The position numbers were made by a program, and so were the translations under genes. From the IMG/VR virus record IMGVR_UViG_3300037189_030782: DNA of 64,000 nt; one strand, 5' to 3'. The notes beneath the pieces were generated by a model. That model was not told the origin of the DNA. It saw nothing but the letters and a program-made list of their open reading frames with translations, and ran no database searches. Shown here one piece after another: positions 1-57,549 of this stretch. This DNA comes from a virus. Its lineage: Duplodnaviria; Caudoviricetes. Within the stretch, counting starts at the first letter, position 1; each line of letters starts with the position of its first letter.

Positions 1-2
1 GC

Positions 3-3288: not shown

Positions 3289-3295
3289 CCGCATA

Positions 3296-8523: not shown

Positions 8524-8524
8524 T

Positions 8525-8830
8525 ATGGCAAGCAATGTTTCTAGATATAATAAAACCAAAATGCTGACCTACCAGCAGCAATCTACCTATGGCGTGTGGG
8601 TTGTGCCAATTGATTTAGCCAGTATCCCAGAAGATCGTATATCAACATACGTTGTGACCACAGGGTTAGCCGGGCGGGCCGATATTATCGCTGGCTATTT
8701 ATACGGTAACCCACAGTACGATTGGGTTTTGTACACATACAATAATGTTGTCGATACAATAAATTGGCCACCAGTTGGATTGGTTATAAAATATCCAATT
8801 GCATCTTACCTGCTACCACGGATTTCGTAA
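8525..8830 (+). CDS. Baseplate wedge gp53-like / LysM tail protein
   Basis: TYVVT..GRADIIAGYLYGNPQYDWVLYTYNN...GLVIKYP. Confidence 0.65.
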   Translation: MASNVSRYNKTKMLTYQQQSTYGVWVVPIDLASIPEDRISTYVVTTGLAGRADIIAGYLYGNPQYDWVLYTYNNVVDTINWPPVGLVIKYPIASYLLPRIS

Positions 8831-11265: not shown

Positions 11266-11266
11266 A

Positions 11267-11986
11267 ATGATAATTAAATTCCCCACTGGATTCTATTCTC
11301 GAAGCCAGTTTACGCAGAATATCACATTTACTGTTAGTTCAGCTATGCCGTTCTTCGGAAGTAGCAATATAGCTAAGGTCCCAGAGGGCATCATTGCTCA
11401 AAACCCTAGAGCTCAACAGGGCACTATCATTTCTAGTAGGCCTCAATTCGGCCAACAAATCGCAACTGTCACAAAGGCAAATGCTGCCGCTACAGGGTCG
11501 ACCACAAAAAAATATGCGTATGGTCAAGCCATTGAACTAACGCCTCCGGTACCAGTTGCTAGCGTTGAACAGATGTACGTCTCAACTGGCGTTGAATATC
11601 TACATGACCAAAATGTGTTAGACCTGCAAAGCTTTGGTCTAACTTTTGTAGAGTCTAATTCTCTGACATTTAGTGGGCTTGAAGCGTTTGAGCAGCTGCG
11701 GGTGCAGTTAAGCCAAGCTATTGCTGCAAGGAAGGACGCTGAACTTGGCATAGGACTAGCTAAGACTAACCTTGGCGATTGCGAAAAAACGTTGGCGGCG
11801 GCGAAAGTCATTGGCAGTACACTGATAGGGCCCACGCAATATGACGAAATCATCAAGACCTTAGAAGCTAAAAAGCAACAGTTGCTGGCAGAAATCACTG
11901 CCCAAACTATCATCGCTAATGAGACTGCGCTAAATGCATCGAAGTTGCGTAATGATCTATTAACCGTAGCCACTCTGGTGAACTAA
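11267..11986 (+). CDS. Hypothetical virion-module protein with C-terminal coiled coil
   Basis: Coupled ORF between the gp5-like and gp25 genes. Confidence 0.55.
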   Translation: MIIKFPTGFYSRSQFTQNITFTVSSAMPFFGSSNIAKVPEGIIAQNPRAQQGTIISSRPQFGQQIATVTKANAAATGSTTKKYAYGQAIELTPPVPVASVEQMYVSTGVEYLHDQNVLDLQSFGLTFVESNSLTFSGLEAFEQLRVQLSQAIAARKDAELGIGLAKTNLGDCEKTLAAAKVIGSTLIGPTQYDEIIKTLEAKKQQLLAEITAQTIIANETALNASKLRNDLLTVATLVN

Positions 11987-12363
11987 TGGCAAGTGTATAT
12001 GGTTACAATCCTCCGTTCTATGACGGCAAGTATTCGATCTTGCCTAGGCAGGAAGATGAACGCCTGATAAAGAATGACATTTTGCAATTGCTGCTAACGG
12101 TGCCCGGCGAGAGGTACTACAAGCCTGCTTTTGGCGTTGGCATCAGGAATTATTTGTTTGAGCCATTAGACAACGTGCTCTTAAACAGACTCAGATTATC
12201 GATTATTGATCAGATCAGTAAGAATGAACCTAGAGTCATTAACGTCCGAGTGACACTTACGCCTGATGAAGCGCGTAATGGATTAAATATTCAGATTTTT
12301 TCGAATATGAGAAATCAGCCGAACACGTTCATAAATATCGAACAATTCTTCACGAGGGGATGA
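11986..12363 (+). CDS. Baseplate wedge protein gp25 (GPW_gp25 family)
   Basis: LIKNDILQLLLTVPGERYYKPAFGVGIRNYLFEPLD...KNEPRV. Confidence 0.9.
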   Translation: MASVYGYNPPFYDGKYSILPRQEDERLIKNDILQLLLTVPGERYYKPAFGVGIRNYLFEPLDNVLLNRLRLSIIDQISKNEPRVINVRVTLTPDEARNGLNIQIFSNMRNQPNTFINIEQFFTRG

Positions 12364-12364
12364 C

Positions 12365-14050
12365 ATGGCTGACGCAATAATCACCTTGCCTAACAATTCT
12401 GTTAACGATCAGTTGGTGAAACAGTATGGCGCAGGATCCATCTATTTTCAATTACCACCGGATCCACAACAGATAGGATTATTAACACCAGACAGCAGCT
12501 TACGTTCGCTCGATTTCAGTGGGCTAGACTTTGATACTGCGCGACAGGTGTTATTAGAATACATTAAGACGTACTTTCCAGATAAATTTAATGACTTTGT
12601 AGCTGCAAATGGAATCGTAATGATGACAGAGTTGGTGGCCAGTGCGGTCGCCAAGCTAAGCTTAAGATCTGATCTACTGGCGCAAGAAGCGACGCTAGCC
12701 ACAGCCACGCAAGAGGAATCGGTTTTAAATCATTTAAGTCTGATTAACCAAAAAATTCTACGGCAAACAGCCGCCACCGTAGATTTTGAATGTGTGGTCA
12801 GCAGAATCGCTAGCAGTGACATCAGGATAAATGCTGGAACGAGCTTTAATATCGCTGGAGCTGATGGCAAGAGATTGATTTATGAAGTTTACAAGGCGCC
12901 TGATGATTGGACCAGTCAAATTATCATACCAAGTGGTAAAAAGGGCACTATTGCATTCGGTATCGAAGGTCAATTCACGCAACCAGTAAGCTATTCTTCA
13001 GATGGGACAGCTAACCAATCATTTACTATAAGAGACAATAACATTTTATCTTATCCCGTGTTCATTAAAGTTTCTAATGGGCGCGATATCATAGATTACA
13101 CCGCAATAGATTATCCAATTCAAAAAGCCGGACCCAATGATACGGTCGCTGAGACCATATTCTATGGTGACCGTATGGTGGTAAATTTTGGTGATAATCG
13201 GACTGGCAAAATACCGGCGAGCGGAAGCAGCATTTTAATAAGGTATAGAGTTGGCGGAGGATTAAGGGGTAGGATATCCGCTAACACCATCAGTCAAACC
13301 AACCAGTATGTGTCTGACCCACCGCAATCTTTGCTGGTCAATGTGACTTTCAGTAATGTCACATCGAGTCAGGGCGGTACAGACAAAGAATCTATCGAGG
13401 ACGCAAAGCGACGAGCGCCTAAAGATTTCTCATTGCACGACAGGATCGTTACGATCAGCGATTATAGTCAATTCGCTAAGACGTTTGCTAGTCCTGTATA
13501 TGGAGCTGTGGCAAAAGCAACAGCTATCTGCAGGACTGACATAAATGCTAACTTAGTTGAAGTATATATCTTAGCATTTGGTAAGGATGCACTGGAGCTA
13601 CCAAGTTTGGGTCTTAGAGACGGCTTGAGCAGCAAGATAAGGTTATACAATAATGCTACTGATACTGTTGAGGTTCTGGGCGGCAGGTTAAAGGCGGTAG
13701 ACATCAAAGCTAGCATCATTATTAGTCGCACTGCCGATGGCACTATTGTAAGGCAGGAAGTAGAACGGACTATCAATGAATTCTTTAATTATAATAACTG
13801 GGAACTTGGTGAGGGCTTGTTTTTAAGCAACTTTATTAACACATTAGAGGGTATCGATGGCATTCAGTATGTAGACATGTATGCGCCAAATAGAAATATT
13901 CTTGCCACTAATGAAGTGTTTAACGAAGGCACCGGAACCGCCGGGCATGATCCTTATTTAGTTGGTTTAAACGAATTGATATCTCTAGGCAATAGCCAGA
14001 TTAGTTATTTCTACGAGAAAGTGAGCAATCAACCAACCGTTAGGAGTTAA
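12365..14050 (+). CDS. Baseplate wedge protein gp6 / baseplate J-like
   Basis: LDFSGLDFD...DFVAANG, FGDNRTGKIP, YRVGGG, GGTDKESIEDAKRRAP, RIVTISDY. Confidence 0.87.
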   Translation: MADAIITLPNNSVNDQLVKQYGAGSIYFQLPPDPQQIGLLTPDSSLRSLDFSGLDFDTARQVLLEYIKTYFPDKFNDFVAANGIVMMTELVASAVAKLSLRSDLLAQEATLATATQEESVLNHLSLINQKILRQTAATVDFECVVSRIASSDIRINAGTSFNIAGADGKRLIYEVYKAPDDWTSQIIIPSGKKGTIAFGIEGQFTQPVSYSSDGTANQSFTIRDNNILSYPVFIKVSNGRDIIDYTAIDYPIQKAGPNDTVAETIFYGDRMVVNFGDNRTGKIPASGSSILIRYRVGGGLRGRISANTISQTNQYVSDPPQSLLVNVTFSNVTSSQGGTDKESIEDAKRRAPKDFSLHDRIVTISDYSQFAKTFASPVYGAVAKATAICRTDINANLVEVYILAFGKDALELPSLGLRDGLSSKIRLYNNATDTVEVLGGRLKAVDIKASIIISRTADGTIVRQEVERTINEFFNYNNWELGEGLFLSNFINTLEGIDGIQYVDMYAPNRNILATNEVFNEGTGTAGHDPYLVGLNELISLGNSQISYFYEKVSNQPTVRS

Positions 14051-14051
14051 G

Positions 14052-14444
14052 ATGCATAAAATTTGGGGCACGACTGAGCAGGTCTATCATAGCCCAACGG
14101 TGTCACGTCACAGCATTTCTATTAATGCAAATCATCATTGCAGTATACATTACCACAAGTATAAGACTAATATATTTGCAATCGACTCTGGCGAGCTAGC
14201 TGTAATAAATTATGAGGGTCTAAACTCTAGTTTTGTACTCTTAACGGCTGGCGATTATTACAGTGTTCCACCATTGCTGGTACACTCATTCTACGCTATC
14301 TCGAACGTCACTGCACACGAGATCTATTGTGCTCAATTTGGACATCAAGTTGATGAGCAAGATATTGTCAGATTTAATGAGGGTGGAGTGTGTTTAGACT
14401 TGGAGCAGTTTGTTAGGAATATAAGACATCATAAGAACAGATGA
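14052..14444 (+). CDS. Cupin-domain protein
   Basis: KIWG start; CSIHYHKYKTNIF..DSG and YSVPPLLVHSF cupin metal motifs. Confidence 0.7.
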   Translation: MHKIWGTTEQVYHSPTVSRHSISINANHHCSIHYHKYKTNIFAIDSGELAVINYEGLNSSFVLLTAGDYYSVPPLLVHSFYAISNVTAHEIYCAQFGHQVDEQDIVRFNEGGVCLDLEQFVRNIRHHKNR

Positions 14445-14466
14445 CCAAATGGACGTCATCGTTTTA

Positions 14467-16902
14467 TTACGGTGTATTTGGGGCTTTATAGACTATGGCG
14501 CTGCCGCCGATCTTCTCAGCGGCCTTTTGTAAGGCGAGGTCAAGTATATGCTTGGCCTTTCCAAAAACAATGGACTTGTGCTCTGGCGGAATCATATCAC
14601 CATACTTATCTTGTAGAGTCGAGTCTATTTTCGAATTGATCATGCGGCGCATATTGCCAAGATGCTTAGTAAGGTCTGCACGATATGCTTGTTCCTTATG
14701 TGCAACTAGGCTGGGATTAGCAGCTGGTGTTAAGCGTAGCAGAAAATCATAAAAGTAATGTTGGCGTTGCTCTAACGGTAATCGTGTGTTGAATAGCTTT
14801 TGATTTAAGAAATCTCTAACAGACGGCGCCTTACCAGCCATTGCTGCCTTGATCTGCGTGGCGAAGGCTGTAGCTAGCGGCGTGTCCAAACGTTCTATGG
14901 ATTCAAGTGCATTATGTATGCCACCATGACGGATCTTGTTATCTAAAGAAACTAGATAGGGTAACAATTGTTTTACGTCCGCTCGACCTGTGGTCGACAT
15001 AGTCGCTTGTTGGGCCGCTTGTAGGGCCGCTTGTTTGGCCGCTTCTTGGCTGCCTTTTTTATATCGATAGTAGTTGTTAACGAAATAAGCTGCTGATCTT
15101 TGTCCTACTTCTAAATCGTAGATGATTGATATATAGTATAATGCGACATAGGGCTCCTCCCATTCGTCCATCTCTTTTCGCACTAATGGTTCTTCGATGG
15201 CTTGCCTAGAAGGATCGCTGCCTCGTAACACAGAGTCTGCTCTAACTACATTGGCAAGAATCGCCGCTAAAACTGGCGGTAAATTTTTAATTATTTGATT
15301 CGCAGTAGCTGTAGCGGCTGATTTACCTGTTAGATTTTTCTCGACTTCAGCCATCGCAGCTTGGACCGCAGCGCTATTGCCAAGGGCCACTTTGTAATGG
15401 GAAAATGACTTTACTGGTATGTCGGTATCAAAGCGATTACCATCCCGAGAGGCCGAGCGGTCATACATTAATCCCTTTTGTGCTTTCTTATAAGCACCAC
15501 TGGTCTCATAGGCCAGTTTTCCAATCCTGAGGCATAGCTTGTTGATTCGCTGTAGTATCAAAGAGCCATAGCTATCATCCTCATCCTCATCCTCATCCTC
15601 ATCCTCATCCTCATCCTCATCTACAATTACAATTTCTTGCTCTACAACAGCACTATGGGCATCAACAGCTTCTGGAAATTCTTCCCGCCACTGATCCAGA
15701 GTATCCTTTAGACTATCAGAATCTTTGAGCGCATGGTTTTCTAAAACAAGCTTCAATAATTCCAAGTAAACTGGATCAAGCTGAAAAGAGACGTCTTCAC
15801 CAAGAATATCAACAACACCATCCTTATCGATAATTGACTGGATAGTGGCCAAAACTTTCTTAATACTCTTGATACCGGCTCTGGCGTTTGAATTTTCTTC
15901 AACACCAACTTCGGCCATAGCTTGCTTCAAATTTTTGGAAGAAGCGATTGGCTTTGTCTTCGATTTCTTATTCTGAATCTCTTTTTCTCGTTCTTCAGTC
16001 CTGTCAATGACCTTCTTTGACTGTCGAAGCAAGGTTTCATCGTTATTACTTTCTGCAATAACTTTTTTTGTCTCAGCCCTACCTCTTTTATTTTTAATTG
16101 CGTCTAGCTGTTTGTCCAACTTTGAGGTTTTAGCCTTATGGCTTTCCTGTGCATTGACAATAGCAGCACTTAAAACTTCCGATCTCTTTTCAAGATCGTC
16201 AATCTTTAAAAGTTGGGAGGCTACGCTTCTCTTGATTTTGTCTTCACAAAGCTGAGACAACGTATCTTCGTCAATTTTTTCAAGAAGTTCATCTGTTTCA
16301 TGAAGCCATTTTGAATCTCTTTGCAGGATTTCAAGAATCTGATCGTCACTGGCTCCATACAAACGGAATTCCCGCACAGCAGCCACTTCATGACCGTCCG
16401 TCAGGTTGATGCGATTCTTATTTTCTGCCCATGCGAGCGTTGCAGCTTCAAGATCGCTTGCACAGCTAAATATCTGGCAGACAACGTATTCGTATGCAAT
16501 GTCAGCAGAAACCATTTCTCTTTCAGAAGTAGTTTCTCCAAATTTGCTTTCTCTTGGATCAATTACCATCTCTTTTTTAGAGATGAGATAGTCCAAGGCT
16601 CTATACCTACGATCACCACCAACAAGCTGGGGGTGTGCATTTTCACTATCGCCAACCCAACGGCAAATCAAGGGATTCAAAAGCGTTCTGTGCTTAATGT
16701 TTTCCCTTAGGTCCGCAGACAAAGACCTATCTGTAAGGGTTTCGGTGCCGTTCTGCGTTAAAAGTCTTGGGTTAGAAAATACATAATCCGAAGATTCTTC
16801 CACTTTGTCGGTGGTTATAATTTTTGAAAATTTAACTTTGAAGAGGGAACCGTGGAGATGTTCAATACCGTCAATTAAACCGAAAGAATTTGCCTTTTTC
16901 AT
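14467..16902 (-). CDS. ParB-like N-terminal domain protein fused through a DE repeat to an unrelated C-terminal half (probably chimeric)
   Basis: NPR...LRENIK..TLLNPLICR...LVGGDRRYRAL ParB motif in the N-terminal half; GC changes at the DEDEDE tract. Confidence 0.65.
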   Translation of the reverse strand: MKKANSFGLIDGIEHLHGSLFKVKFSKIITTDKVEESSDYVFSNPRLLTQNGTETLTDRSLSADLRENIKHRTLLNPLICRWVGDSENAHPQLVGGDRRYRALDYLISKKEMVIDPRESKFGETTSEREMVSADIAYEYVVCQIFSCASDLEAATLAWAENKNRINLTDGHEVAAVREFRLYGASDDQILEILQRDSKWLHETDELLEKIDEDTLSQLCEDKIKRSVASQLLKIDDLEKRSEVLSAAIVNAQESHKAKTSKLDKQLDAIKNKRGRAETKKVIAESNNDETLLRQSKKVIDRTEEREKEIQNKKSKTKPIASSKNLKQAMAEVGVEENSNARAGIKSIKKVLATIQSIIDKDGVVDILGEDVSFQLDPVYLELLKLVLENHALKDSDSLKDTLDQWREEFPEAVDAHSAVVEQEIVIVDEDEDEDEDEDEDEDDSYGSLILQRINKLCLRIGKLAYETSGAYKKAQKGLMYDRSASRDGNRFDTDIPVKSFSHYKVALGNSAAVQAAMAEVEKNLTGKSAATATANQIIKNLPPVLAAILANVVRADSVLRGSDPSRQAIEEPLVRKEMDEWEEPYVALYYISIIYDLEVGQRSAAYFVNNYYRYKKGSQEAAKQAALQAAQQATMSTTGRADVKQLLPYLVSLDNKIRHGGIHNALESIERLDTPLATAFATQIKAAMAGKAPSVRDFLNQKLFNTRLPLEQRQHYFYDFLLRLTPAANPSLVAHKEQAYRADLTKHLGNMRRMINSKIDSTLQDKYGDMIPPEHKSIVFGKAKHILDLALQKAAEKIGGSAIVYKAPNTP
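15575..15621. repeat. Perfect hexanucleotide microsatellite (TCATCC)7+TCATC encoding poly-(Asp-Glu) on the - strand
   Basis: Read directly; 47 bp perfect. Confidence 0.98.
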
Positions 16903-30407: not shown

Positions 30408-30460
30408 GGTTACTCTCTCTCTGTTAAAGGGAGATCAAGAAGGCGGATAATCCGCTTTTT

Positions 30461-30555
30461 CACAGGAAACACTCCTGTGCGTATCCCAGCAAAGATAGCT
30501 GGTGGCACCGTGGCTTTTGCTCGGTTGCCAGTGCCTTTCGGCACCTTCTTAATAC
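30461..30555 (-). ncRNA. SAM riboswitch, SAM-I/IV-type architecture
   Basis: GUAUU(P1)-AAGAAG-GUGCC GAAA GGCAC(P2)-UGGCAACC..GGUGCCA(P3)-CCAGC..GCUGG(P4)-GAUAC(P1')-CACAGGA..UCCUGUG(P5). Confidence 0.8.
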
Positions 30556-30569
30556 TTCCTACAAAAATT

Positions 30570-34697: not shown

Positions 34698-35741
34698 TCA
34701 AACCCACCAAGAATTTTGCAATGTCCAAGAAACTATCTTCTCAAGACCTTCTTGGAACTCTATGGGAGGCTCCCAACCAGCCTTTTTTAACTTTGACCCA
34801 TCTAGGGCATATCTTCTATCATAGCCTCTTCTAACGGACTCTGAGGGGGTTAAACGGTATTTCAAGGGCTTATCCATGATTTTTGAAACCAAAAAAGCTA
34901 ATTCCAAATTATTGAGCTCAATATCTCCCACCACGTTGTATCTATCTGGGAGGGTGTCACCATTTTCATATTTTGAAATAGCTCTATTTGCCAGCCAAAT
35001 AAAGATGTCCGCATGATTTTCAGCATGGAGGTAAAATCGACTACCAATTTTGTATTGGCCGTTTCCCACATTATCAGCGTAAATTTCCAACTCTTGGTTC
35101 GTTGCAATTTTCCAAATAATCTTAGGAAGAAACTTTTCTTTATCTTGCCATACACCAATAGTGTTCATGCAATTTGTCAACACAACAGGAACGTCATAAG
35201 TTCTCCAATAAGATATAGCAAGTGCTTCTTGAGCGGCTTTTGAAGCAGCGTAAGGATTCGATGGAACTATAACGTCCCACTCAGGATGAGAATAGCTATC
35301 GGGGCAATCGCCATAAACTTCATCCGTAGATACTTGAAAAAATATACTTGGTTTTATTTTTCTTGCTAATTCAAGCATGTTAATTGCTATTTCGCAATTA
35401 TTTGTCCAGCAATCTTTTGGATTTGTTATAGAACGTTCAACGGCAGAATCAGAAGCCATATTAATTATATAATCGATTCTTTGTTGTCTTAGATAACCTC
35501 TTTGGTCTATTGTTCTGCTTAGAATTCTGTTCTCTAAAACTTCGTCAATGGGCACAGACAAGTCATGCTTAATTAGCAAAAAGCGATTTGGATCTATATC
35601 TAATTCGTTAAGCCTTGAGTAGGTGCCTTTATGTCGAAATGAATCTAATGCGACAATAAACCAATCTGTTTTTTCTAAAAAGTATTTAACACAATGTGCA
35701 CCTATAAAACCACTAGCACCTGTGAGCAAAACACGTTTCAT
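34698..35741 (-). CDS. NAD-dependent nucleotide-sugar dehydratase (dTDP-glucose 4,6-dehydratase/RmlB-like)
   Basis: TGASGFIG, STDEVYG, YAASKAA, DRRYALD. Confidence 0.88.
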   Translation of the reverse strand: MKRVLLTGASGFIGAHCVKYFLEKTDWFIVALDSFRHKGTYSRLNELDIDPNRFLLIKHDLSVPIDEVLENRILSRTIDQRGYLRQQRIDYIINMASDSAVERSITNPKDCWTNNCEIAINMLELARKIKPSIFFQVSTDEVYGDCPDSYSHPEWDVIVPSNPYAASKAAQEALAISYWRTYDVPVVLTNCMNTIGVWQDKEKFLPKIIWKIATNQELEIYADNVGNGQYKIGSRFYLHAENHADIFIWLANRAISKYENGDTLPDRYNVVGDIELNNLELAFLVSKIMDKPLKYRLTPSESVRRGYDRRYALDGSKLKKAGWEPPIEFQEGLEKIVSWTLQNSWWV

Positions 35742-39007: not shown

Positions 39008-39952
39008 CTAATTTTTTGTTAAAAATTCAAGCTTTTTTTCTGCTTGTTCCTTGTGTTTTTTACCTCCATATCTGATTAATCTCTGTAAGAACCAAATTCT
39101 TGTATCATGTAAATCACTTGAAAAAATAAAAAAAGTTTCTGGGGTATGGCCTAAGCCTAAAAAACAAAGAACCTCATCAATTGACTCACAATCCAATAAA
39201 TTGTCAGGAATATCTTTATCTTTACAGTTTTCTATAAAAGTTAAAAATAAATAGATCCATGATTTTATGTCCCTTGAATCTAGTGTGCCTTCAGGATATC
39301 TAAGTTCTATAGTTTTTCTTTTTGCAATGCCGACTATAGAACGCATATAATTTACTAAATTCAAAGAGACCCTTCTCTCTTCGTTCTCATAAACATTCAA
39401 ATTGGATGGTGCAAGAAAAGAAAAAACATCTTCTGGTTTTCTTTTTTTATCACGATCAAGGCCTATAGTGCCTGACAATCTTCTACAGTATTTATTATTT
39501 ATTCTGGAGCTGGGTAGTGAATTTTCTATCCAAGTCTCAATCTTAAGCCAATAAGATAATATTGTGCCAATGGCTTTTATATCTAGATCTTTAACATCAG
39601 CATGAATGTGTGTGCCACAATTTTGATTTGACCTACATCCAGCATCGTATAAAAAACTAGCTATACCTGCTATGTGATTGATGTCCTTGCTACCTTGGGC
39701 AACATAAGATGCAACCTCTACTCCCTTGGGACCTCTCCTACCTAGAATGCCGCAAGTAGCATCATCTTTGACATGCCAAAAATTATTGTTTGAGCTTAAT
39801 TGATATTTTGTAACCTCAACGGGAACTTTTGAAGCTACCTTAATCAAATTTTTTATTTTATTCTTGGGAATAAAACTACCCATTTCTAACTCTACGCCAA
39901 AATTTCTTTCAATATCAAATTTTTTGTAAGCTACATTAACTTTTTCATTCAT
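39008..39952 (-). CDS. Putative amidoligase (Amidoligase_2, COOH-NH2 ligase family)
   Basis: FGVELEM, WHVKDDATC, GVEVAS, NCGTHIH, LNL, TIELR..EGTLD. Start at the TAATG overlap. Confidence 0.85.
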   Translation of the reverse strand: MNEKVNVAYKKFDIERNFGVELEMGSFIPKNKIKNLIKVASKVPVEVTKYQLSSNNNFWHVKDDATCGILGRRGPKGVEVASYVAQGSKDINHIAGIASFLYDAGCRSNQNCGTHIHADVKDLDIKAIGTILSYWLKIETWIENSLPSSRINNKYCRRLSGTIGLDRDKKRKPEDVFSFLAPSNLNVYENEERRVSLNLVNYMRSIVGIAKRKTIELRYPEGTLDSRDIKSWIYLFLTFIENCKDKDIPDNLLDCESIDEVLCFLGLGHTPETFFIFSSDLHDTRIWFLQRLIRYGGKKHKEQAEKKLEFLTKN

Positions 39953-40236
39953 TAAAAATCGCCTTGTTGCTGTGCCAACCGACGAGACGCTTCTTGTATT
40001 TCTTCTTCGTACTTCTGATCCCAAGTTTTAGGGTATTCTTCAACTGGTTGTTTCTGATCTGGAGGTTCTATGTTGATTTCTAATAAACTAGAGATTAATT
40101 CAGTTAAATCCCTTCGGAATCTAACTAAAAATGCGCCCATGTAAAAAGTAAGAACTAGATTAATTATAATTAAAACTAAATTTGAAGCAAATAAAATGTA
40201 AATAATATTCATGTTTTTATCAAGCTGGGTTTCCAT
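39952..40236 (-). CDS. Small membrane protein
   Basis: N-terminal TM helix. Confidence 0.6.
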   Translation of the reverse strand: METQLDKNMNIIYILFASNLVLIIINLVLTFYMGAFLVRFRRDLTELISSLLEINIEPPDQKQPVEEYPKTWDQKYEEEIQEASRRLAQQQGDF

Positions 40237-42066: not shown

Positions 42067-42771
42067 TTACCCTTCTAGCTTTTCCAAAATAGAAGCTATT
42101 AAAGGATGTCTAACTATTGAACTAGATTTAAAGTAAACGACTCCAACTCCATTTAAAGTCTCTAGCTTTTTGACCACATGCATTAATCCTTGTTGCCTCT
42201 CAGGAATATCACTTTGGTTGGGATCCCCAGTAATAATTACCTTACTGTTCTTGCCAAATCTGGTTATAAAGAGTTTAATTTGTGATAAAGTTGCATTTTG
42301 CGCCTCATCAAATATACAAATAGAATTGTGAAAAGTTCTTCCTCTGAGGTAAGCCAGTGGTGCAACTTCAATTGATTTATTTATAATTTCTCTTTGTGGA
42401 CCATCTTTTCCCAAACACCTGTCTATACAGTCGTACATAGGCATCATGTAAGGACTTACTTTTTCCTCAAAAGAACCAGGAAGATAACCCAAAGATTCCC
42501 CTGCTTCTACTATCGGCCTAGTCAAAATTATTCTTTCTTTTTTCTTAGCAAGAACCTCACTTATACTGAATGCACAGGCCAGTTGAGTCTTGCCAACCCC
42601 AGCTGGGCCCAATAAAAAAAGTACATCGTATTGATCAAACATACTCCAAGCAAGTTTTTGTGCTTGGTTAAAAAATTCAAAATGGAAAGTCTGTGGCTGC
42701 TTTTTTAGAGGCTGCTCTTGCTTAACCTCAGTTCTTTGTTTAGATCTATTGTGTCTTTGCTTTTTTCTCAT
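42067..42771 (-). CDS. phoH: PhoH-like ATPase
   Basis: GPAGVGKT, LTRPIVEAGESLGYLPG, PLAYLRGRTF, DEAQN, TGDPNQSD, VRHPLI. Confidence 0.95.
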   Translation of the reverse strand: MRKKQRHNRSKQRTEVKQEQPLKKQPQTFHFEFFNQAQKLAWSMFDQYDVLFLLGPAGVGKTQLACAFSISEVLAKKKERIILTRPIVEAGESLGYLPGSFEEKVSPYMMPMYDCIDRCLGKDGPQREIINKSIEVAPLAYLRGRTFHNSICIFDEAQNATLSQIKLFITRFGKNSKVIITGDPNQSDIPERQQGLMHVVKKLETLNGVGVVYFKSSSIVRHPLIASILEKLEG

Positions 42772-47188: not shown

Positions 47189-48208
47189 TTACTGTTGAGT
47201 TTCCAAATTATTAAGCCAATTTTGCCTTTGTGGTGTAACATTTTTTTGTTCAAAAGCAGAAAGTTCCTTTAAAGTAGACTTATACTCATCGTCGGTCTGT
47301 CTTGGTATTTCGAGCTTTAAAGACACTATCATATCACCTATATGAGCTTTAGTTAATACACCTTTTCCCTTAACCTTAAATTTTGTTTGCGGCTGACATC
47401 CTTGAGGAATTTTAACAATTAATCTTTCTTTAAATATAGAGGGTACAAGCAGTTCACAACCAAGTGCAAGCTGGGTATATGAAACTGGAACCTCTATATG
47501 TAAATTAGATCCTTCTCTTTTAAATAAAGGATCATCTTTAACCTTAACTATAATTATTAAATCGCCTTGCCTGCCACCCCTAACAGACTCTTCTCCATCA
47601 CCAGCAAAACTAAGCTGAGCATTGTTTTGTATGCCTGATGGTATTTCTACTTCTATATCCTTTTCTTCATAAGAAGAAAAACCTGTTGCTGCACACTTGT
47701 CACATTTTTTTAATTTTATCTTGCCTAAGCCAGCACAATTTGGACAAGACTGTTTTATAGTGAACGGAACACTAGGAGCTTGTATAAAACCATTACCAGA
47801 GCATTGCTCGCAAATCAAAAAATCTGTGCAACCTTGTCCATCGCAATCGTCGCACCTTTTTCTTTTTTTTGCTTTTACAAATTTCTTACAACCACTGATA
47901 GATTCTAATAAATCAATCTCTAACCTTACAATAACGTTTTTGCCCTTGAATGTACTAGAGCCAAACAAATCAGCAGAAAAGTCAAAATCAAAAGGATTAT
48001 GCTTAGGACTTGACCTTTCTGTGTTTGTTCTCCTAGATTGACCTGTCAAGATTTCATAGGCATGTTGAATCTCTTTAAATCTCTTAGCCGACTCAATATC
48101 ATCAGGATTTAAATCAGGATGATACTTCTTAACTAAGTCTCTATAAGCTTTTTTTATATCATCAAGGGTAGAATTAGATTCTACTCCTAATGCATTATAG
48201 GGATTCAT
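47189..48208 (-). CDS. dnaJ: Chaperone DnaJ (type I)
   Basis: J-domain with HPD, four CxxCxGxG-type repeats, C-terminal GDL..V.V...F.R.G..L domain. Confidence 0.93.
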   Translation of the reverse strand: MNPYNALGVESNSTLDDIKKAYRDLVKKYHPDLNPDDIESAKRFKEIQHAYEILTGQSRRTNTERSSPKHNPFDFDFSADLFGSSTFKGKNVIVRLEIDLLESISGCKKFVKAKKRKRCDDCDGQGCTDFLICEQCSGNGFIQAPSVPFTIKQSCPNCAGLGKIKLKKCDKCAATGFSSYEEKDIEVEIPSGIQNNAQLSFAGDGEESVRGGRQGDLIIIVKVKDDPLFKREGSNLHIEVPVSYTQLALGCELLVPSIFKERLIVKIPQGCQPQTKFKVKGKGVLTKAHIGDMIVSLKLEIPRQTDDEYKSTLKELSAFEQKNVTPQRQNWLNNLETQQ

Positions 48209-48590
48209 TATAGCTGCCTGATTGATCAACTTCCTCGACTGGGTCACTTTCTTCGATTAATACACTCTTTATAGCGTGTGGCTCCATAAAAAATCGATCT
48301 CTATGAGTATCGTCATAGTTTGGAGCTAGAACACCACCACCAGAGATGAGCACTCTATCACCTAAGTTAAAACCCCAAGCATCTTGATTAAAGGATGGGC
48401 CAACGCCTCTAATATAACCCTGCAAAGGTACCTTTAGGTCTGTGTTCTCTGCTAATGTTAAAGTTGTTCCCATCAATTCTTGTGCAGTTAAAATCTCCAC
48501 TAGAACCTGTGAACCCGCTGGCTTTACAGCTGAAATCTTTGGAATAGGGGTAAGCATTGGTGAACCATCTGAGTTTAATATCTTATTCAT
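48195..48590 (-). CDS. groES: GroES/Cpn10-like co-chaperonin
   Basis: VKPAGSQVLVE...G..RGVGP...GDRVL...HAIKSVL. Confidence 0.7.
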   Translation of the reverse strand: MNKILNSDGSPMLTPIPKISAVKPAGSQVLVEILTAQELMGTTLTLAENTDLKVPLQGYIRGVGPSFNQDAWGFNLGDRVLISGGGVLAPNYDDTHRDRFFMEPHAIKSVLIEESDPVEEVDQSGSYNESL

Positions 48591-49018: not shown

Positions 49019-50539
49019 TTATTTTAAGCCCTGTGGAAATGATAAGGCTCCATGGTTAACAGTCCATGTAACCTTGTGAACAACACCATCAAATAAACCA
49101 GCAGCAGAAGGGCTGCCATTGCCAGATTTTTTGACGCCGCCAAAAGGAAGGTGTGACTCTGCCGCAATACTGCCTCCGTTCCAATAGCCCAAACCAAAGT
49201 CACAGTTGTCTCTAAACTGTCGTGCTTTTTTAAAGTCATTAGTTATCAACCCCAAAGATAAACCATACTCGGTATCATTATAAATCTCAATTGCTTGTTC
49301 TACCGTATCAAAAGGTATAATTGCTAGATGTGGCCCAAATACCTCATTTTTTAGAAATTCTTTATCGCCCCACTCACACTGGTAAACAAAAGGTGCTAAG
49401 TAATTTCCCTTAGGCTCTGGGCTGATTATGTCGTAAAGTATGGTCACATCTTTATCTTCTCTCGCCTTTTGATTAAAACAAGATACCCTTTCTTTTTGAT
49501 CTTTACTAATTAGAGGACCAAAATAAACAGAATAATTTTTAGACTTATCCATATTAAAAGGATCGCCATAGCCAGATAAATGTAATTCACTTAAAAATCT
49601 TTGCTTAAATTCAGGAAGAATATCTCTTTGTATCAATAGTCTTCCAGCCGAAACACATCTCTGTCCGCTTAGTTTAAAAGCACTATTTATGCAAGCGGAA
49701 ACAGCTAAGTCAATATCTGCGTCGTTTAAAACAACCACAGCAGACTTACTGCCCATTTCACAACTACATGTTTTGTGCCAACTATTTGCACAAGCAACTC
49801 TTATTGACCTGCCTACTTCTGCACTGCCTGTAAAGCATATATGATCCACTAAATCGCTATTGACTATTTTGGCCCCAACCTCACCATCTCCATGAATTAA
49901 GTTAAATACGCCTTTGGGAAATCCCGCTTGATCAAAAAGTTCTGCGGTTATCTGTCCGACCATGGGTGTTAATTCACTAGGCTTAAAAACAACGGTATTT
50001 CCTTCAATAAGAGAAGGGCCAGCACACCAAAAACCACCAATAGCAAAGGGAAAATTCCATGGTGCTATTATTGCAACTACACCCTTAGGTTTTCGAACAA
50101 TATAACAATCTTTTTCTGCAATTTCAGAGGGAACAATATCTCCAGAAGTTTCTCTCCCTTTTCCAAAACAATACTGAGCCATATGTAAAGCCTCAATAAC
50201 TTCGGCCTTACTTTCATTAAGGTTTTTACCAGTTTCCAAAGAAATTGCTTTAGCTACGTCGCCAACTCTCTGCTCTAGAATTTTGCAAAGGGACCAAAAG
50301 TAATCTGCTCTTTTTACTTTTGAAATCTTTCGCCAAACATCAAAACCTTTTCTGGCTACTTTCAAGGAATGAGTTATCTCTTCAGAATTAGTCTGAGGAA
50401 ATCCGCCAATAATTTCTTCTGTGGATGGATTGTAACTCAAAAAGTCTTCTCTTTGTGCTATCCAACTACCATCTACAAAGTTTTTGCCAATATACTTTTC
50501 CACAAAGCCTCCATTTAAATATTTTATGCAATCAATCAA
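49019..50539 (-). CDS. NAD(P)-dependent aldehyde dehydrogenase (probable GTG start at 50503)
   Basis: IAPWNFP, FKPSE, FTGSAEVG, catalytic E in EMGSK, catalytic C in GQRCVS, EVFGP, PFGGVKKSGNG. Confidence 0.95.
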   Translation of the reverse strand: MIDCIKYLNGGFVEKYIGKNFVDGSWIAQREDFLSYNPSTEEIIGGFPQTNSEEITHSLKVARKGFDVWRKISKVKRADYFWSLCKILEQRVGDVAKAISLETGKNLNESKAEVIEALHMAQYCFGKGRETSGDIVPSEIAEKDCYIVRKPKGVVAIIAPWNFPFAIGGFWCAGPSLIEGNTVVFKPSELTPMVGQITAELFDQAGFPKGVFNLIHGDGEVGAKIVNSDLVDHICFTGSAEVGRSIRVACANSWHKTCSCEMGSKSAVVVLNDADIDLAVSACINSAFKLSGQRCVSAGRLLIQRDILPEFKQRFLSELHLSGYGDPFNMDKSKNYSVYFGPLISKDQKERVSCFNQKAREDKDVTILYDIISPEPKGNYLAPFVYQCEWGDKEFLKNEVFGPHLAIIPFDTVEQAIEIYNDTEYGLSLGLITNDFKKARQFRDNCDFGLGYWNGGSIAAESHLPFGGVKKSGNGSPSAAGLFDGVVHKVTWTVNHGALSFPQGLK

Positions 50540-51542
50540 AAAAGTTCAAAAAATAACATTTTTCGTCTTTTTCACCGAGCAATACGGCATGAATGAGTTT
50601 GTTTCTAATTAAGCTACGGTCGAAAGCATTCAATGCTTCATGCTTTGATTTGTAAGTTTGGAAAATATTTTCACAGTCCAAGAAACAATAGTTCTCATCA
50701 CTTTGTTGTATTATCTGTATACTTGGCACAACCACACAAAAATTGTCGAATATGGGTTTTTCGTTTGCTTGTGGAAATTTTTCTAAAATCTTTAATGCCT
50801 TCTTTGTTCTTTTAGAAGCTATATCAAAAAAAGCACGAAGAGGGTAAACTCTTGGCTCATAAAGAACCTCACCGTACGGAGCAATATGCCCTACAATCAA
50901 GTTTTCTGATATGTGAAACCCCATTATCTTAGCTAAAATAGTTGAAGTTGAAAGTATACTGATAGGGTGAAAACCGTAATACAACTTGTTTGTCTCTTCT
51001 ATAAGACCAATAGAATTCTTAACTTCATCTGCTAGAAACATGCACCCTATTTCTTCGTATCTTTTTGCCTTCTTATTCGCCAGCTTAATATCATTTTTGT
51101 AAGACTCATCAAACCTCATAAATTTATCAAAAGAATCAGGAGATGACTCCCAATTACTTTGTAGATTTTTGCAGAAAGAATATAGATCAATATTTTGAAC
51201 ATTTTTTAAAGATCTTATTTCTTCTCTAAGTGATTTGTTTTTTATAAGCCTTGTTTTAAAAGAAGAAAAAGAAGTTACTTTAGAAATTGAAGAAATTATC
51301 TTCTCTTCTGAGAAATTTCCTTCTATCAAAGAATAAAAAATCTCTAAAATATCAGGATGAGTCTCATCTACTTTACCTTCAAATACAGTATCAGTAAATT
51401 CTTTAAGTAATTGTCTTACTTTTTTTAGCGACAATGAGGCCAATATATCTCTGCGTCCAGAAATGTATATTCCTTTGTCAGACTTACTCAAAAGAGAAAA
51501 ACAAACTTCTTGAGTTTTTGGAACACTACTTTTGAACTTCAT
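50532..51542 (-). CDS. Hypothetical protein (336 aa)
   Basis: Coupled ORF between infC and the ALDH gene. Confidence 0.65.
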   Translation of the reverse strand: MKFKSSVPKTQEVCFSLLSKSDKGIYISGRRDILASLSLKKVRQLLKEFTDTVFEGKVDETHPDILEIFYSLIEGNFSEEKIISSISKVTSFSSFKTRLIKNKSLREEIRSLKNVQNIDLYSFCKNLQSNWESSPDSFDKFMRFDESYKNDIKLANKKAKRYEEIGCMFLADEVKNSIGLIEETNKLYYGFHPISILSTSTILAKIMGFHISENLIVGHIAPYGEVLYEPRVYPLRAFFDIASKRTKKALKILEKFPQANEKPIFDNFCVVVPSIQIIQQSDENYCFLDCENIFQTYKSKHEALNAFDRSLIRNKLIHAVLLGEKDEKCYFLNFFD

Positions 51543-52069
51543 GATGATACTTTAGGACTTAAACAACAAATTATTTTATTTCCATCAAGCTTTGGAGGCC
51601 TATCTAAAAGAGAAACCTCAGATAAACTTGAAATAATATGATTTATAACTGTAAAACCTTTTTCTTTATGTATCAGTTCTCTTTGACCCTTAAACATCAG
51701 ATTAAACTGAACTTTCATCCTGTCTTCCAAAAAATCCTTGGCTTGTGAAATTTTAACGGCTATATCGTTGTCAGCTATAGTAGGCCTTAATCTTAATTCC
51801 TTTATTTGAACCTTAGATTCTTTTTGTTTTTTAGCCTGCTCTTTTTTCTTAAGTTGTTGTTCGTATTTAAAGCGTCCATAATCAATTATTTTACAAACAG
51901 GTGGCTTTGCTGCTGGGGCGACTTCAACCAAGTCGAGCCCAGCTTCTTCGGCAATCCTTCTTGCCTTATCTGTATTCATTACACCAAGTTGTTTGTCATC
52001 CATGACAACACGAACTTGAAAAGATTTAATCTTCCAATTAATTCTAAAATCTTCTGGATCTATCGACAT
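51539..52069 (-). CDS. infC: Translation initiation factor IF-3
   Basis: IN..I...VRV...QLGVM....A...A....LDLVEVAP..KPPVCKIIDYGRFKYE...KELRLRP.I..ND. Confidence 0.96.
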   Translation of the reverse strand: MSIDPEDFRINWKIKSFQVRVVMDDKQLGVMNTDKARRIAEEAGLDLVEVAPAAKPPVCKIIDYGRFKYEQQLKKKEQAKKQKESKVQIKELRLRPTIADNDIAVKISQAKDFLEDRMKVQFNLMFKGQRELIHKEKGFTVINHIISSLSEVSLLDRPPKLDGNKIICCLSPKVSS

Positions 52070-52075
52070 TATTTT

Positions 52076-53683
52076 TTATGCCTTTGGAGAACTATTGATA
52101 CCTTTTAGTAAAGAAGAACCGGTTTCTAGACATACATTAATAACAGAAAGTTCAACTGAATTTAAAGCCAATTTTATAGAACTTTCTAGTTCTTCTTCTG
52201 TTACTGCTTTATATCCAAAACCACCAACCATCATATCAAATACTTTATGGTAATTCCAGTCTCTTATAGAAATATTTTTTTCAAGTAATTTTTCTGTTGC
52301 ATATCCTTTATTATTTAAAACAAATACAATCGGATTTAATTTATGTTGGAGTATTGTACTTAATTCTGATAGCGACATCTGGAAAGCTCCGTCACCAACT
52401 AAAACTATGGGACGAATATTGGGCTTTGCCAATTGAAGCCCAAGTGCTCCGGGAATCGCTAAGCCCATACTGCAATAAAAAGCAGGGCTTATAAAATGAT
52501 GTTGACAAACTTTCAAACTAGATGCACCTAATAGACATTCACCTATATCAGCTACAACAGCAACTTTTTCATTTAAAATACTGTTTATTTTTTGAAAGAA
52601 TCTTTCAACAGTTATCGTATTGTTAGAAGGAACAAATTCTAGAATTTCTGGTTTTTTTATGCATGGGGCTTCTTTTTTGCCAAGCTCTAACTTAAAAAAC
52701 CCTCTACAGAAATCTAAAAATTTTACGTCTTTAAAAACATGATTCTTAATTTTTAACCCTTCTGTTGAGCAAAATATAATTTGTTTTTTAGTAAACTTTG
52801 GCGTTTCGAACCCAGCAATCATATCAGTAAGCATTTCACCCAATATTAGTAGACAGTCTGATCCGTCTACAATATTTCTAACATGATCTTGGCTAGTTTG
52901 ATTTCCGCAATAAACACCGGCAAAAAGAGGATGGTCTTCATTCACAGATGACTTACTCAAAAGTGTCGTGACCATCGGAATATTATGTTTTTCTGCAAAC
53001 CTAATTAGCTGTTCATTTAAGCCAAATCTAGTGATTTGAACCCCAACCATAATCACAGGATTCTTTGATAAAACCAACCACTCAGCGGTTTCTTGTATAG
53101 AATCTTTCAGGGAATCTTCATCGCTCTTTTGGCTTTCTGGTGTGCCTTGTCTGTAGACATCATATTTAATCGGCTGTGTTGCAATGTCTCTGGGTAACTC
53201 AATATAAATTGGTTGCTTATTTTGTTTTATAATTTCTAAGGCATTATCAATCTTCCAGCCAGCCGTAGTGGCATCGTCTAGAACAACACTATGGCATGTA
53301 ATATGTTTAAATATTTTTTGTTGATTATCAAAGCTTTCAACAACATGATGCAAAAGAAAGTCCTCGTTACGCTCTTTAATTCCAGGAGAACCACTTATAA
53401 CTATTATTGGGGACTTCTCTGCGTATGCTCCTGCCACGGCATTACATAATTTTAATGCTCCAACACTGTAGGTGGCACAAACACAACCTATACCATGTGC
53501 TCTTGCATAAGCATCCGCTGCAAATCCAGAATGATTCTCATCAGTATTGTTTACAAAAACAACTTTTTCGCTTTGATTTGCACTATTGATGAAGTCCACT
53601 AGATAATCTCCGGGAACTCCGAATATGTGCTTTACACCAAAGTTACCCAGTCTTTCAATCAGAAATTCGGCAACTGACGGCAT
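52076..53683 (-). CDS. TPP-dependent 2-keto-acid decarboxylase (pyruvate/indolepyruvate decarboxylase family)
   Basis: FGVPGDY, DE..SGFAADAYAR, NAVAGAYAE, LLHH, GDGAFQM...NNKGYATE. Confidence 0.93.
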   Translation of the reverse strand: MPSVAEFLIERLGNFGVKHIFGVPGDYLVDFINSANQSEKVVFVNNTDENHSGFAADAYARAHGIGCVCATYSVGALKLCNAVAGAYAEKSPIIVISGSPGIKERNEDFLLHHVVESFDNQQKIFKHITCHSVVLDDATTAGWKIDNALEIIKQNKQPIYIELPRDIATQPIKYDVYRQGTPESQKSDEDSLKDSIQETAEWLVLSKNPVIMVGVQITRFGLNEQLIRFAEKHNIPMVTTLLSKSSVNEDHPLFAGVYCGNQTSQDHVRNIVDGSDCLLILGEMLTDMIAGFETPKFTKKQIIFCSTEGLKIKNHVFKDVKFLDFCRGFFKLELGKKEAPCIKKPEILEFVPSNNTITVERFFQKINSILNEKVAVVADIGECLLGASSLKVCQHHFISPAFYCSMGLAIPGALGLQLAKPNIRPIVLVGDGAFQMSLSELSTILQHKLNPIVFVLNNKGYATEKLLEKNISIRDWNYHKVFDMMVGGFGYKAVTEEELESSIKLALNSVELSVINVCLETGSSLLKGINSSPKA

Positions 53684-53696: not shown

Positions 53697-54404
53697 CTAA
53701 GCTTCGCTAGGAATTGTGTCATTTATCTTTATTAAAAAACCTTCTCGGTCTGTTGGAAATCTTCTCATCCATTCGACTTCAGAAGATTCATTTAACTTTA
53801 TTAACTTAAATTCAAAGTAATAGCAACCCGGAAGTAAGGTGTCAGCAATGTCCCAGTTATAAACAAAGTAACTTTCAATTAAAACATTCTGGTTTACTGT
53901 GCCGTCAAGCTCCGTTACATCCTCATAAAGCATTTCAGTTTGTGCATCAGCATTCAAAAATTTAATTATTCTTAAAGGAGAACCTTTTTTCCAAGGTTGA
54001 GCATCAGTGCTGTCGTGGGCTCTTTCTACCGTTATAATTTTAGAAACTTCATCTATTCCAGTTACCAACATTTTCTCTGGGCTTCTTGGTCTGTCCATTA
54101 TAATTACGTCATTAATAGCAACTTGGTAAAATCCAACATTGTCTGCAAAAGATATTTGAGTAGAGTCGTCCTCAATCGTAGACTTTAATTTACCCCTTGC
54201 CCACATACTGCTTTCCAGAACAAGATCTGTTAAGTCCATAGGACCATCACAATCTTGCATTTGGAGCCTGAAATCTGGCTTGGTGTCATTCCTGCGTATT
54301 GAAAAATCTGGACAAGCAGCCGAGCAACCATATTCATCAACGCAATTGTAGCCTGAATTTGGAATATACCCGCTATTATTGATATTTGTGTTGTTGCATC
54401 CCAT
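53697..54404 (-). CDS. Probable structural protein (BppU N-terminal-like)
   Basis: FSIRRNDTKP.F...DLT...YNW..ADT..PG.YYFEF pattern; TATATACA upstream. Confidence 0.5.
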   Translation of the reverse strand: MGCNNTNINNSGYIPNSGYNCVDEYGCSAACPDFSIRRNDTKPDFRLQMQDCDGPMDLTDLVLESSMWARGKLKSTIEDDSTQISFADNVGFYQVAINDVIIMDRPRSPEKMLVTGIDEVSKIITVERAHDSTDAQPWKKGSPLRIIKFLNADAQTEMLYEDVTELDGTVNQNVLIESYFVYNWDIADTLLPGCYYFEFKLIKLNESSEVEWMRRFPTDREGFLIKINDTIPSEA

Positions 54405-54441
54405 GATTGTATTTATGCGTAAAGTGAATAAAAATAGGCAG

Positions 54442-54861
54442 CTAATTAGGATTAATAACTTGTATATAGTAAAAACGATAATCTTCATTGTCAAACTTAC
54501 TAACAAAAGTTTTTACATCTCTTTTTTGAGAATTTGAAAGATACTTTTTAATCTTTGAAGAAGGAACAGGCACCCTACAGCTCCAATTTGTATCTTCTTC
54601 TACGAACATTTTTAAAGAAAAGGGTATATCTCCCAAATAAATATAGTCAGCACAACTAATTATATAGCAATCAGACTGTGTATCGTATGCATACCCCCCT
54701 AAAGCACATCCTTGGTAGCAACTTATTTTAGTTGTTTTATTGTAAGATTCATTCCTATTGGCGACCACTAAAATAATACCAGTACGTTCTTGAGACACCT
54801 CAAAAACAAAAGAGTTCTTAACTCCACGAACAATTTTATCTTCAGAACTTTGTTTTGTCAT
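54442..54861 (-). CDS. Hypothetical protein
   Basis: ORF on the dominant strand. Confidence 0.55.
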   Translation of the reverse strand: MTKQSSEDKIVRGVKNSFVFEVSQERTGIILVVANRNESYNKTTKISCYQGCALGGYAYDTQSDCYIISCADYIYLGDIPFSLKMFVEEDTNWSCRVPVPSSKIKKYLSNSQKRDVKTFVSKFDNEDYRFYYIQVINPN

Positions 54862-57060: not shown

Positions 57061-57549
57061 CTAAGTAATAAGTTGAATTTCTTTTCCAAAATCCGCAATT
57101 GAAATTCCCGAAGAATGATCTATCTCATGCTGGAATATTACTGCTTGAGTACCCTTTTCTACAGACTGAAAAGGTTCGGACTTTATAACATCACTAAATA
57201 AAAGCCTAAAGCCTTTTACTAGCACCTCTGAGTATCTTGCAACTTGAAATCTTCTAAGTTTTAAATGTGTTTCATCTTTTATAGAAAGGCATCCTTCTAT
57301 CGCTATAGAAGTATTCCCTATGCCTTCATAAGAACAATCAAAATAAAACTCATAATTTTCATTTCTATTAATAATGAATAGGTCCCAAGGAAGGCCAACT
57401 TGTATGGCATGTAGACCAACTCCACCATTCTCTCTGCACAGCTTCTCCATTTGATTGCATGTCTTAAAAAGAAGAACAAGATCTTTAGTAGGAGTTGAAA
57501 CTGATTTTGGTGCTTCTTTTATCGATATTATAGAATATTTATTTTGCAT
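57061..57549 (-). CDS. def: Peptide deformylase
   Basis: GVGLHAIQVG, EGCLS, QHEIDH. Confidence 0.93.
   Translation of the reverse strand: MQNKYSIISIKEAPKSVSTPTKDLVLLFKTCNQMEKLCRENGGVGLHAIQVGLPWDLFIINRNENYEFYFDCSYEGIGNTSIAIEGCLSIKDETHLKLRRFQVARYSEVLVKGFRLLFSDVIKSEPFQSVEKGTQAVIFQHEIDHSSGISIADFGKEIQLIT

Follow-up and report, generated by a model that had tools for sequence, protein, structure and literature searches.

Does a phage that encodes a 2-keto-acid decarboxylase and an aldehyde dehydrogenase (ALDH) a few genes apart carry a metabolic pathway, or two enzymes that share a neighborhood? The question is raised by a huge freshwater phage (Duplodnaviria; Caudoviricetes) in IMG/VR virus record IMGVR_UViG_3300037189_030782; the whole stretch analyzed, 64,000 nucleotides in length, is referred to here as the window. 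Both enzymes are encoded in a co-oriented, tightly packed minus-strand gene run from 54506 to 47189, and a preliminary description made from the sequence alone had seen in them a complete two-step pathway and a candidate novel auxiliary metabolic module. Our analysis suggests that both are old auxiliary metabolic genes (AMGs) of a large clade of huge phages, facultatively coupled as decarboxylation followed by aldehyde oxidation, a reading that we consider probable although well short of certain. The genes would have passed vertically down the phage lineage as parts of a conserved block in which translation initiation factor 3 (IF3), peptide deformylase (PDF), and DnaJ are also encoded; the decarboxylase would convert a 2-keto acid to an aldehyde and CO2, and the ALDH could oxidize that aldehyde to an acid with formation of NAD(P)H. 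The two enzymes are the following.

52076..53683, minus strand: thiamine diphosphate (ThDP)-dependent 2-keto-acid decarboxylase of the pyruvate decarboxylase (PDC)/indolepyruvate decarboxylase (IPDC)/KdcA family, 535 amino acids (aa) (Pfam TPP_enzyme_N, M, and C)
49019..50539, minus strand: ALDH, 506 aa from a TTG start at 50539 or 494 aa from a GTG start at 50503 (Pfam Aldedh)

The Pfam domains of the decarboxylase (TPP_enzyme_N, residues 3-119; M, 196-323; C, 394-517) give the three-domain architecture of PYR, middle, and PP domains. Residues D26, E49, H112-H113, GDG430-432, NN457-458, and E464 are present in alignments with the family and with KivD, where the equivalents are D26, E49, H112-H113, GDG428-430, NN455-456, and E462; KivD/KdcA is the best solved relative (262 bits). 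These are all of the motifs named in the preliminary description (GD, E, HH, GDG..NN, E), and the signature D-E-HH-GDG-NN-E is kept in 115 of the 120 closest homologs. An AlphaFold2 (AF2) model (predicted local distance difference test [pLDDT] 82.8) matches PDC-family structures over its full length, with template modeling (TM) scores of 0.83-0.90 at 24-30% identity; the matches comprise KivD/KdcA, PDC, IPDC, phenylpyruvate decarboxylase (PPDC), and mycobacterial keto-acid decarboxylase (KDC), with Thi3 also among them. Its sequence shows the 535-aa protein to be a ThDP decarboxylase of the PDC/KdcA type, with the catalytic set complete and activity predicted. It does not appear to belong to either of the nearest NCBIfam equivalogs, since it scores below the curated cutoffs: the best model, TIGR03394 (indolepyruvate/phenylpyruvate decarboxylase), gives 318.7 bits (cutoff 554.5), and TIGR03393 gives 271.3 bits (cutoff 946).

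The ALDH matches Pfam Aldedh (PF00171) with E = 3.5e-121 (405 bits). Residues N162, K186, E189, G238, E261, C295, and E399 are invariant in 121/121 relatives; they include the catalytic Glu and Cys noted earlier (E261 and C295) and E189, the conserved Glu that usually accompanies NAD+ use. A full catalytic set is shown for the predicted enzyme, and the claim that both enzymes look catalytically intact holds at the level of sequence. GucD is the top NCBIfam model, at 330 bits where the cutoff is 770, and the best solved relative (6fkv, 252 bits) is titled only "Aldehyde dehydrogenase." The public gene call (homolog P0121) starts at GTG 50503 (494 aa), and the ALDH of the related locus L020 is intact at 489 aa.

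With high confidence, both enzymes are phage genes and not contamination. A common order, o380-PDF-...-o269-decarboxylase-IF3-o336-...-DnaJ-GT2 (GT2, family 2 glycosyltransferase), was found in 29 loci obtained from IMG/VR scans and look-ups of two homologs; these represent 22 distinct lineages, on contigs of up to 673 kb. One of the loci lies in a complete 572-kb genome (G002), which has direct terminal repeats and, according to CheckV, is 100% complete. When GenBank phages were searched by tblastn, the 595-kb "uncultured phage" record LR756511.1 proved to carry both genes (51% and 57% identity); the other "phage" matches were mainly bacterial-type records. The phage decarboxylases form a single clade in a tree with 76 cellular relatives (100% support in the Shimodaira-Hasegawa-like approximate likelihood ratio test, SH-aLRT), and the phage ALDHs also form a single clade (99% SH-aLRT), whose sister is a Planctomycetaceae metagenome-assembled genome (MAG), followed by haloarchaea. 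Cellular relatives of the decarboxylase, mostly from Planctomycetota and Verrucomicrobiota, reach 40-46% identity at most, and those of the ALDH, alignable to the very C-terminus, 41-48%. Metagenomic phage-type homologs are 55-96% identical, with more than 100 distinct decarboxylase homologs at 55% identity or above on contigs of up to 673 kb. The G+C content at third codon positions (GC3) of both enzymes (0.24-0.27) is that of the flanking genes. As a pointer to the host, the DnaJ is uninformative: its nearest cellular relatives belong to mixed phyla and are only 29-36% identical.

Synteny in 29 loci, a complete genome, single phage clades, distant cellular relatives, and matching GC3 together exclude contamination and recent capture, and each gene appears to have been acquired once, at an early stage. 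Two observations would favor the view that the segment is host DNA or an assembly artifact: for both enzymes the closest cellular relatives are bacterial, and a false join is probable near 15.6 kb on this contig. That view is nevertheless extremely improbable: the same gene order recurs in independently assembled loci, a genome with terminal repeats carries the block, cellular relatives are only 40-48% identical whereas phage-type contigs reach 96%, and composition is uniform across the region, the suspected join lying 33 kb away. Host contamination, the possibility against which the preliminary description had itself cautioned, can be set aside.

The suspected join is located within 14467-16902 of the window, with a repeat near 15575-15621 and a GC content of 0.44 to its left and 0.35 to its right. 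An IMG/VR record (G001) is 100% identical to window positions 12000-14597, where it stops; that it contains 22% of the window's words is consistent with coverage of 1-14597 only. In relatives, an 811-aa open reading frame (ORF) at the suspected join is matched by ORFs of 408-467 aa, and only over its residues 9-388, on the low-GC side.

A decarboxylase on an 8-kb contig of an "Armatimonadota" MAG (L054; JBEDDQ010000055.1) is nested in the phage clade on a long branch; no phage neighbor genes were found on this contig at E < 1e-5, and it may be a misbinned phage fragment or the result of phage-to-cell transfer. A separate tight clade of the PDC family (L030-L051, from IMG/VR) is 32-37% identical to the window decarboxylase and occurs on short "viral" contigs that lack the huge-phage block and may represent prophages or bacterial DNA mistaken for viral.

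Whether the two genes form one unit was assessed by counting their co-occurrence over the 22 distinct lineages. The ALDH gene is located 2-6 kb downstream of the decarboxylase gene in 12 of these, one of which (L011/L012) has a dead decarboxylase; both enzymes are intact together in 12/22 lineages. As an indirect proxy of co-occurrence, 27 identical longest-contig sizes are common to the homolog lists of the two enzymes. Several observations weigh against the reading that we favor. The ALDH is missing from the syntenic place in nine lineages and lies about 60 kb from the decarboxylase in another relative, G003 (430 kb, 97% complete). In the complete genome G002 the decarboxylase is intact, yet a genome-wide search for PF00171 returned no member; the same search found ALDHs in 14/14 control genomes. 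In L011/L012, a dead decarboxylase stands beside an ALDH that is 73% identical to that of the window and keeps all catalytic residues. The nearest cellular homologs show no linkage of decarboxylase and ALDH; one Planctomycetaceae MAG has a closely related ALDH gene followed by a class-III aminotransferase gene, which points to an omega-amino compound or semialdehyde and not to Ehrlich-type aldehydes. In the window sublineage, the loop that follows the catalytic Glu and the C-terminal helix of the decarboxylase look eroded and activity may be altered, and the AF2 model is least confident at the active-site loops (288-295, 382-384, 462-471, and 525-535).

Among the cellular relatives of the decarboxylase (80 loci), there was no recurrent neighbor and no adjacent ALDH except one at 29% identity. 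Cellular ALDH neighborhoods vary, and the class-III aminotransferase is the sole suggestive case. In many phage relatives, the ALDH gene is flanked by an IscA/HesB-like Fe-S_biosyn gene (L006:13765-14103; L007:13467-13823) and by a gene for a 283-289-aa protein (L006:16443-17312; L007:15624-16475) in which, of the domains of UDP-glucose/GDP-mannose dehydrogenases, just the N-terminal and central ones are present; the window has neither gene.

Because each gene persists in relatives that lack a working copy of the other, we regard the coupling as facultative and not obligate. Serial action is chemically natural where both enzymes are intact, but it is not what keeps the genes in these genomes, and the pair is not an obligately coupled two-enzyme module. 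The proposal of a complete two-step pathway therefore stands as far as two intact, co-oriented enzymes that occur together in 12/22 lineages, and it falls where it implies one selected unit, the ALDH being absent from G002, distant in G003, and retained beside a dead decarboxylase. The look at related phages that had been suggested as a check likewise gave a divided answer (ALDH syntenic in 12 lineages, elsewhere in one, and missing from its syntenic place in nine). For the candidate novel auxiliary metabolic module, phage residence of the genes in independent genomes (for the decarboxylase, a complete one included) is gained, and obligate coupling is lost.

Sequence comparison does not single out a substrate of the decarboxylase. 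In a ranking of PDB and Swiss-Prot matches, identity to characterized enzymes was 29-30% for KivD/KdcA, 27-28% for ancestral PDC, 27% for PPDC, 26-27% for IPDC, 26% for mycobacterial KDC, and 24-27% for bacterial, fungal, and plant PDC. Since every characterized family member is 24-30% identical, pyruvate, indolepyruvate, and branched-chain substrates are indistinguishable on this basis; pyruvate, indolepyruvate, and phenylpyruvate, which the preliminary description had put forward, receive no specific support, and the products named there are likewise unsupported. Automatic annotation of relatives at JGI reads "indolepyruvate decarboxylase" and "aldehyde dehydrogenase (NAD+)." The pocket residues, mapped through KivD and counted clade-wide (M288, I380, L384, L385, T463, and L467), form a medium-sized aliphatic pocket in which bulky aromatics are absent and no basic residue suggests itself as a partner for a dicarboxylic substrate. 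Bulky Tyr and Trp residues restrict bacterial pyruvate decarboxylases to pyruvate; given an aliphatic pocket that lacks them, we lean weakly toward a keto acid larger than pyruvate as the putative substrate. Position 114 is K or R in the cellular sister clade versus M, V, L, or T in the phages, so the substrate may differ between phage and cellular enzymes. A gene of the indoleamine 2,3-dioxygenase (IDO) family (PF01231) is located 4-9 kb upstream of the decarboxylase in several relatives (L006:881-2029, L009, L010, L016, L018, and L019) and is absent from the window.

The window decarboxylase falls in a 16-row subclade (100% support) that includes two lineages with a catalytically dead decarboxylase, as listed here.

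L002-L005 and L011-L012 (about 10001-11550 of each locus), and P0070, P0072, P0074, P0079, and P0098: dead decarboxylases

Lost from these proteins are D26, the GDG motif (replaced by DEN, SEN, or SED), at least one Asn of NN, and a 12-17-residue stretch with the catalytic Glu; several independent assemblies nevertheless show uninterrupted reading frames of 503-517 aa. The ratio of nonsynonymous to synonymous substitution rates (dN/dS) is about 0.14 for L002 versus L003, a rough value with dS near saturation, and 0.13 for an intact pair; synonymous sites are saturated in most pairs, and the estimate comes from two pairs only. The window decarboxylase and its closest relatives (P0001-P0004) have variable deletions in the "...TERFLLDGxFN..." loop just past E464 and a shortened, divergent C-terminus. 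In PDC-family enzymes, the active site is covered by the post-Glu loop together with the C-terminal helix; with these eroded, the pocket may be more open or the activity lower, or the protein may be on its way to the pseudoenzyme state of the sister lineages.

Other explanations of the locus make stronger or weaker claims for the pair. It has been supposed that the genes constitute a dedicated, complete two-step pathway selected as a unit, either a CoA-independent bypass from pyruvate through acetaldehyde to acetate or a route from indolepyruvate or phenylpyruvate to indole-3-acetic acid (IAA) or phenylacetate. Two intact enzymes in one co-oriented run, their joint occurrence in over half of the lineages, a best NCBIfam model of the indolepyruvate/phenylpyruvate type, and the tryptophan-related IDO-family gene of several relatives are what such a pathway would lead one to expect. 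However, the window is without the IDO gene, the TIGR03394 score is far under its cutoff, identity to IPDC, PPDC, and PDC (24-27%) is no better than that to KivD/KdcA, an aminotransferase that could supply the keto acid was not found in the block, and the ALDH is dispensable in the complete relative and retained beside dead decarboxylases; we find a dedicated pathway doubtful. We are similarly reserved, and judge it unlikely, that the enzymes serve separate purposes, the ALDH acting on an aldehyde that comes from the host (a semialdehyde, an aminoaldehyde, or a compound to be detoxified) and the decarboxylase working toward an alcohol, an acyloin, or a modification precursor, with proximity reflecting only a block of host-like genes. 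Each gene does occur independently of the other, the block mixes unrelated functions (IF3, PDF, DnaJ, and GT2), a class-III aminotransferase gene comes after that of the closest cellular ALDH, and relatives carry extra NAD-type dehydrogenase-like and IscA-like genes beside the ALDH; yet both genes entered the lineage early, are no more than about 2-6 kb apart in 12 lineages, and are matched in chemistry, the product of the decarboxylase being the substrate class of the ALDH.

The degenerate sister lineages raise a further alternative, that the decarboxylase of the window sublineage has changed its catalytic role or is in the course of losing it, and is retained for a noncatalytic job (cofactor sensing or regulation), as is yeast Thi3. 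Its firm grouping with lineages that lack D26, GDG, NN, and the E464 segment yet keep open ORFs, the similar dN/dS of dead and intact pairs, the deletions past E464 with a divergent short C-terminus, and the presence of Thi3 among the structural matches are consistent with this. The window protein, however, keeps all catalytic and cofactor-binding residues, and the dN/dS value is rough; we rate the alternative, with its putative regulatory role, as quite improbable. Its broader form, in which the decarboxylase scaffold has a role in huge phages beyond bulk catabolism (catalytic in most lineages, where it would divert a host 2-keto acid; a ThDP-blind, Thi3-like regulator or sensor in two, apparently under purifying selection; and intermediate in the window protein), is speculative and in our estimate has little chance of being correct. 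We therefore retain facultatively coupled, clade-inherited AMGs as the preferred account.

The other members of the run and of its conserved block are the following.

57061..57549, minus strand: peptide deformylase, an upstream member of the same conserved block (Pfam Pep_deformylase, E = 2.5e-15), syntenic in relatives
53697..54506, minus strand: o269, a conserved virus-specific protein, found in all 29 phage loci (37-52% identity), always directly upstream of the decarboxylase
51539..52069, minus strand: IF3 (infC), 176 aa, between the two enzymes (IF3_N and IF3_C; TIGR00168, 163.9 bits, above the cutoff of 60)
50532..51542, minus strand: o336, 336 aa, between IF3 and ALDH, with homologs in 27/29 phage loci
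48599-49009, minus strand: o136, a small ORF between ALDH and DnaJ, from the ORF list
48195-48590, minus strand: o131, a small ORF between ALDH and DnaJ, 31-68% identical in relatives, with a weak Cpn10 match (E = 0.019)
47189..48247, minus strand: DnaJ co-chaperone at the downstream end of the run (DnaJ, DnaJ_CXXCXGXG, and DnaJ_C), syntenic in relatives

Spacing is tight throughout, with a 13-nt gap from o269 to the decarboxylase, a 6-nt gap from the decarboxylase to IF3, a 4-nt overlap of IF3 and o336, a start-dependent junction of o336 and ALDH (an 8-nt overlap from TTG or a 28-nt gap from GTG), and a 9-nt gap from ALDH to the next ORF. These coordinates, together with phage neighbors around the run (PhoH, DNA ligase, a DNA polymerase fragment, peptide deformylase, DHH phosphoesterase, GT2, and DnaJ), agree with the earlier observation that infC is co-oriented and closely spaced with both enzymes amid phage genes. 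In almost every relative, the gene that immediately follows the decarboxylase is IF3. The genes of the run are probably cotranscribed; a scan for consensus promoters and terminators gave counts not above those of shuffled controls. The DNA of all or part of the window stretch is present in three DNA runs of one study, with no RNA run listed; the run in which the stretch is complete probably comes from the source sample.

Two proteins of the run are without a family. o336 has no Pfam, NCBIfam, or PHROG match; it is kept across the clade at 320-505 aa in relatives, and its AF2 model (pLDDT 82.6, from an 18-sequence alignment) has no named structural match, the sole clear one being an uncharacterized AlphaFold database (AFDB) cluster (A0A370LQW0, TM 0.71). 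The ESM Atlas cluster of o269 has 340 members, 96% of them viral, and no family. An Rfam scan of the window found no TPP riboswitch and only a SAM-I/IV element (RF01725, 52.2 bits) at 30445-30560 on the minus strand; there are no tRNAs in the window. The minus strand of the same low-GC stretch also encodes an NAD-dependent epimerase/dehydratase (GDP_Man_Dehyd-like, 34698-35741), Amidoligase_2 (39008-40024), and PhoH (42067-42771).

Huge phages carry translation and nucleotide genes; central-carbon or amino-acid-catabolic enzymes kept across a whole huge-phage clade are less documented. The decarboxylase is inherited throughout the clade, has more than 100 homologs, and has conserved catalytic residues, which suggests that these phages redirect a host keto-acid pool during infection, with the ALDH as a frequent but dispensable partner. 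The identity of the substrate would show whether they tap pyruvate (for energy or redox), tap amino-acid-derived keto acids, or make a signaling acid, and the natural series of intact, eroded, and dead decarboxylases offers a handle on the protein's job. The genes are phage AMGs from well-known enzyme families, and no published description of the pair in phages was found: a full-text literature search returned no paper on a PDC-family decarboxylase, or on a decarboxylase-ALDH pair, in phages, in agreement with the preliminary description, which knew of no well-characterized phage with this pair, and a 2025 preprint on huge-phage structure mentions neither enzyme. Host-like translation and chaperone genes are carried by huge phages (Al-Shayeb et al. 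2020; PMC7162821), and the block described here (IF3, PDF, and DnaJ, with S21 in relatives) is of the same kind; the main text of that paper makes no mention of a decarboxylase or an aldehyde dehydrogenase.

Among known systems, the closest to the window decarboxylase is KivD/KdcA, the branched-chain enzyme of Lactococcus lactis (PDB 6vgs, 2vbf/2vbg, and 9msa), at 254-262 bits, TM 0.83-0.87, and 29-30% identity; both have the same three-domain ThDP fold, with D, E, HH, GDG...NN, and E at equivalent positions. They differ in the pocket (S286 of KivD is M288 in the window enzyme, Q377 is I380, F381/F382 are L384/L385, and V461 is T463) and in the eroded post-Glu loop and C-terminal helix of the window subclade. 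IpdC of Enterobacter cloacae (1ovm) and phenylpyruvate decarboxylase of Azospirillum brasilense (2nxw) share the family and fold (TM 0.84-0.88, 26-27% identity), but the TIGR03394 and TIGR03393 scores are far below their cutoffs and nothing ties the window enzyme specifically to indole or phenyl substrates. The solved ALDH structures 6fkv/6fku/6fjx/6fk3, which we take to be of a Thermus thermophilus enzyme, are the best solved match to the window ALDH (252 bits); no named subfamily fits, and its nearest cellular relatives are uncharacterized ALDHs of Planctomycetota and haloarchaea.

A ThDP decarboxylase and an ALDH are paired in an analogous way in the cyanobacterial bypass of the tricarboxylic acid cycle, which consists of 2-oxoglutarate decarboxylase and succinate-semialdehyde dehydrogenase; that decarboxylase belongs to the acetolactate-synthase-like branch and not to the PDC branch, and no basic pocket residue is seen in the window enzyme. 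The PDC enzymes of Zymomonas mobilis, yeasts, and plants belong to the same family as the window enzyme (TM 0.84-0.89, 24-27% identity), in which the bulky PDC pocket positions presumably hold Met and Leu, judging from alignment through KivD and from PDC numbering. With the pyruvate dehydrogenase bypass formed by PDC and ALDH, the phage pair would share, in principle, the same chemistry, from keto acid to aldehyde and on to acid and NAD(P)H.

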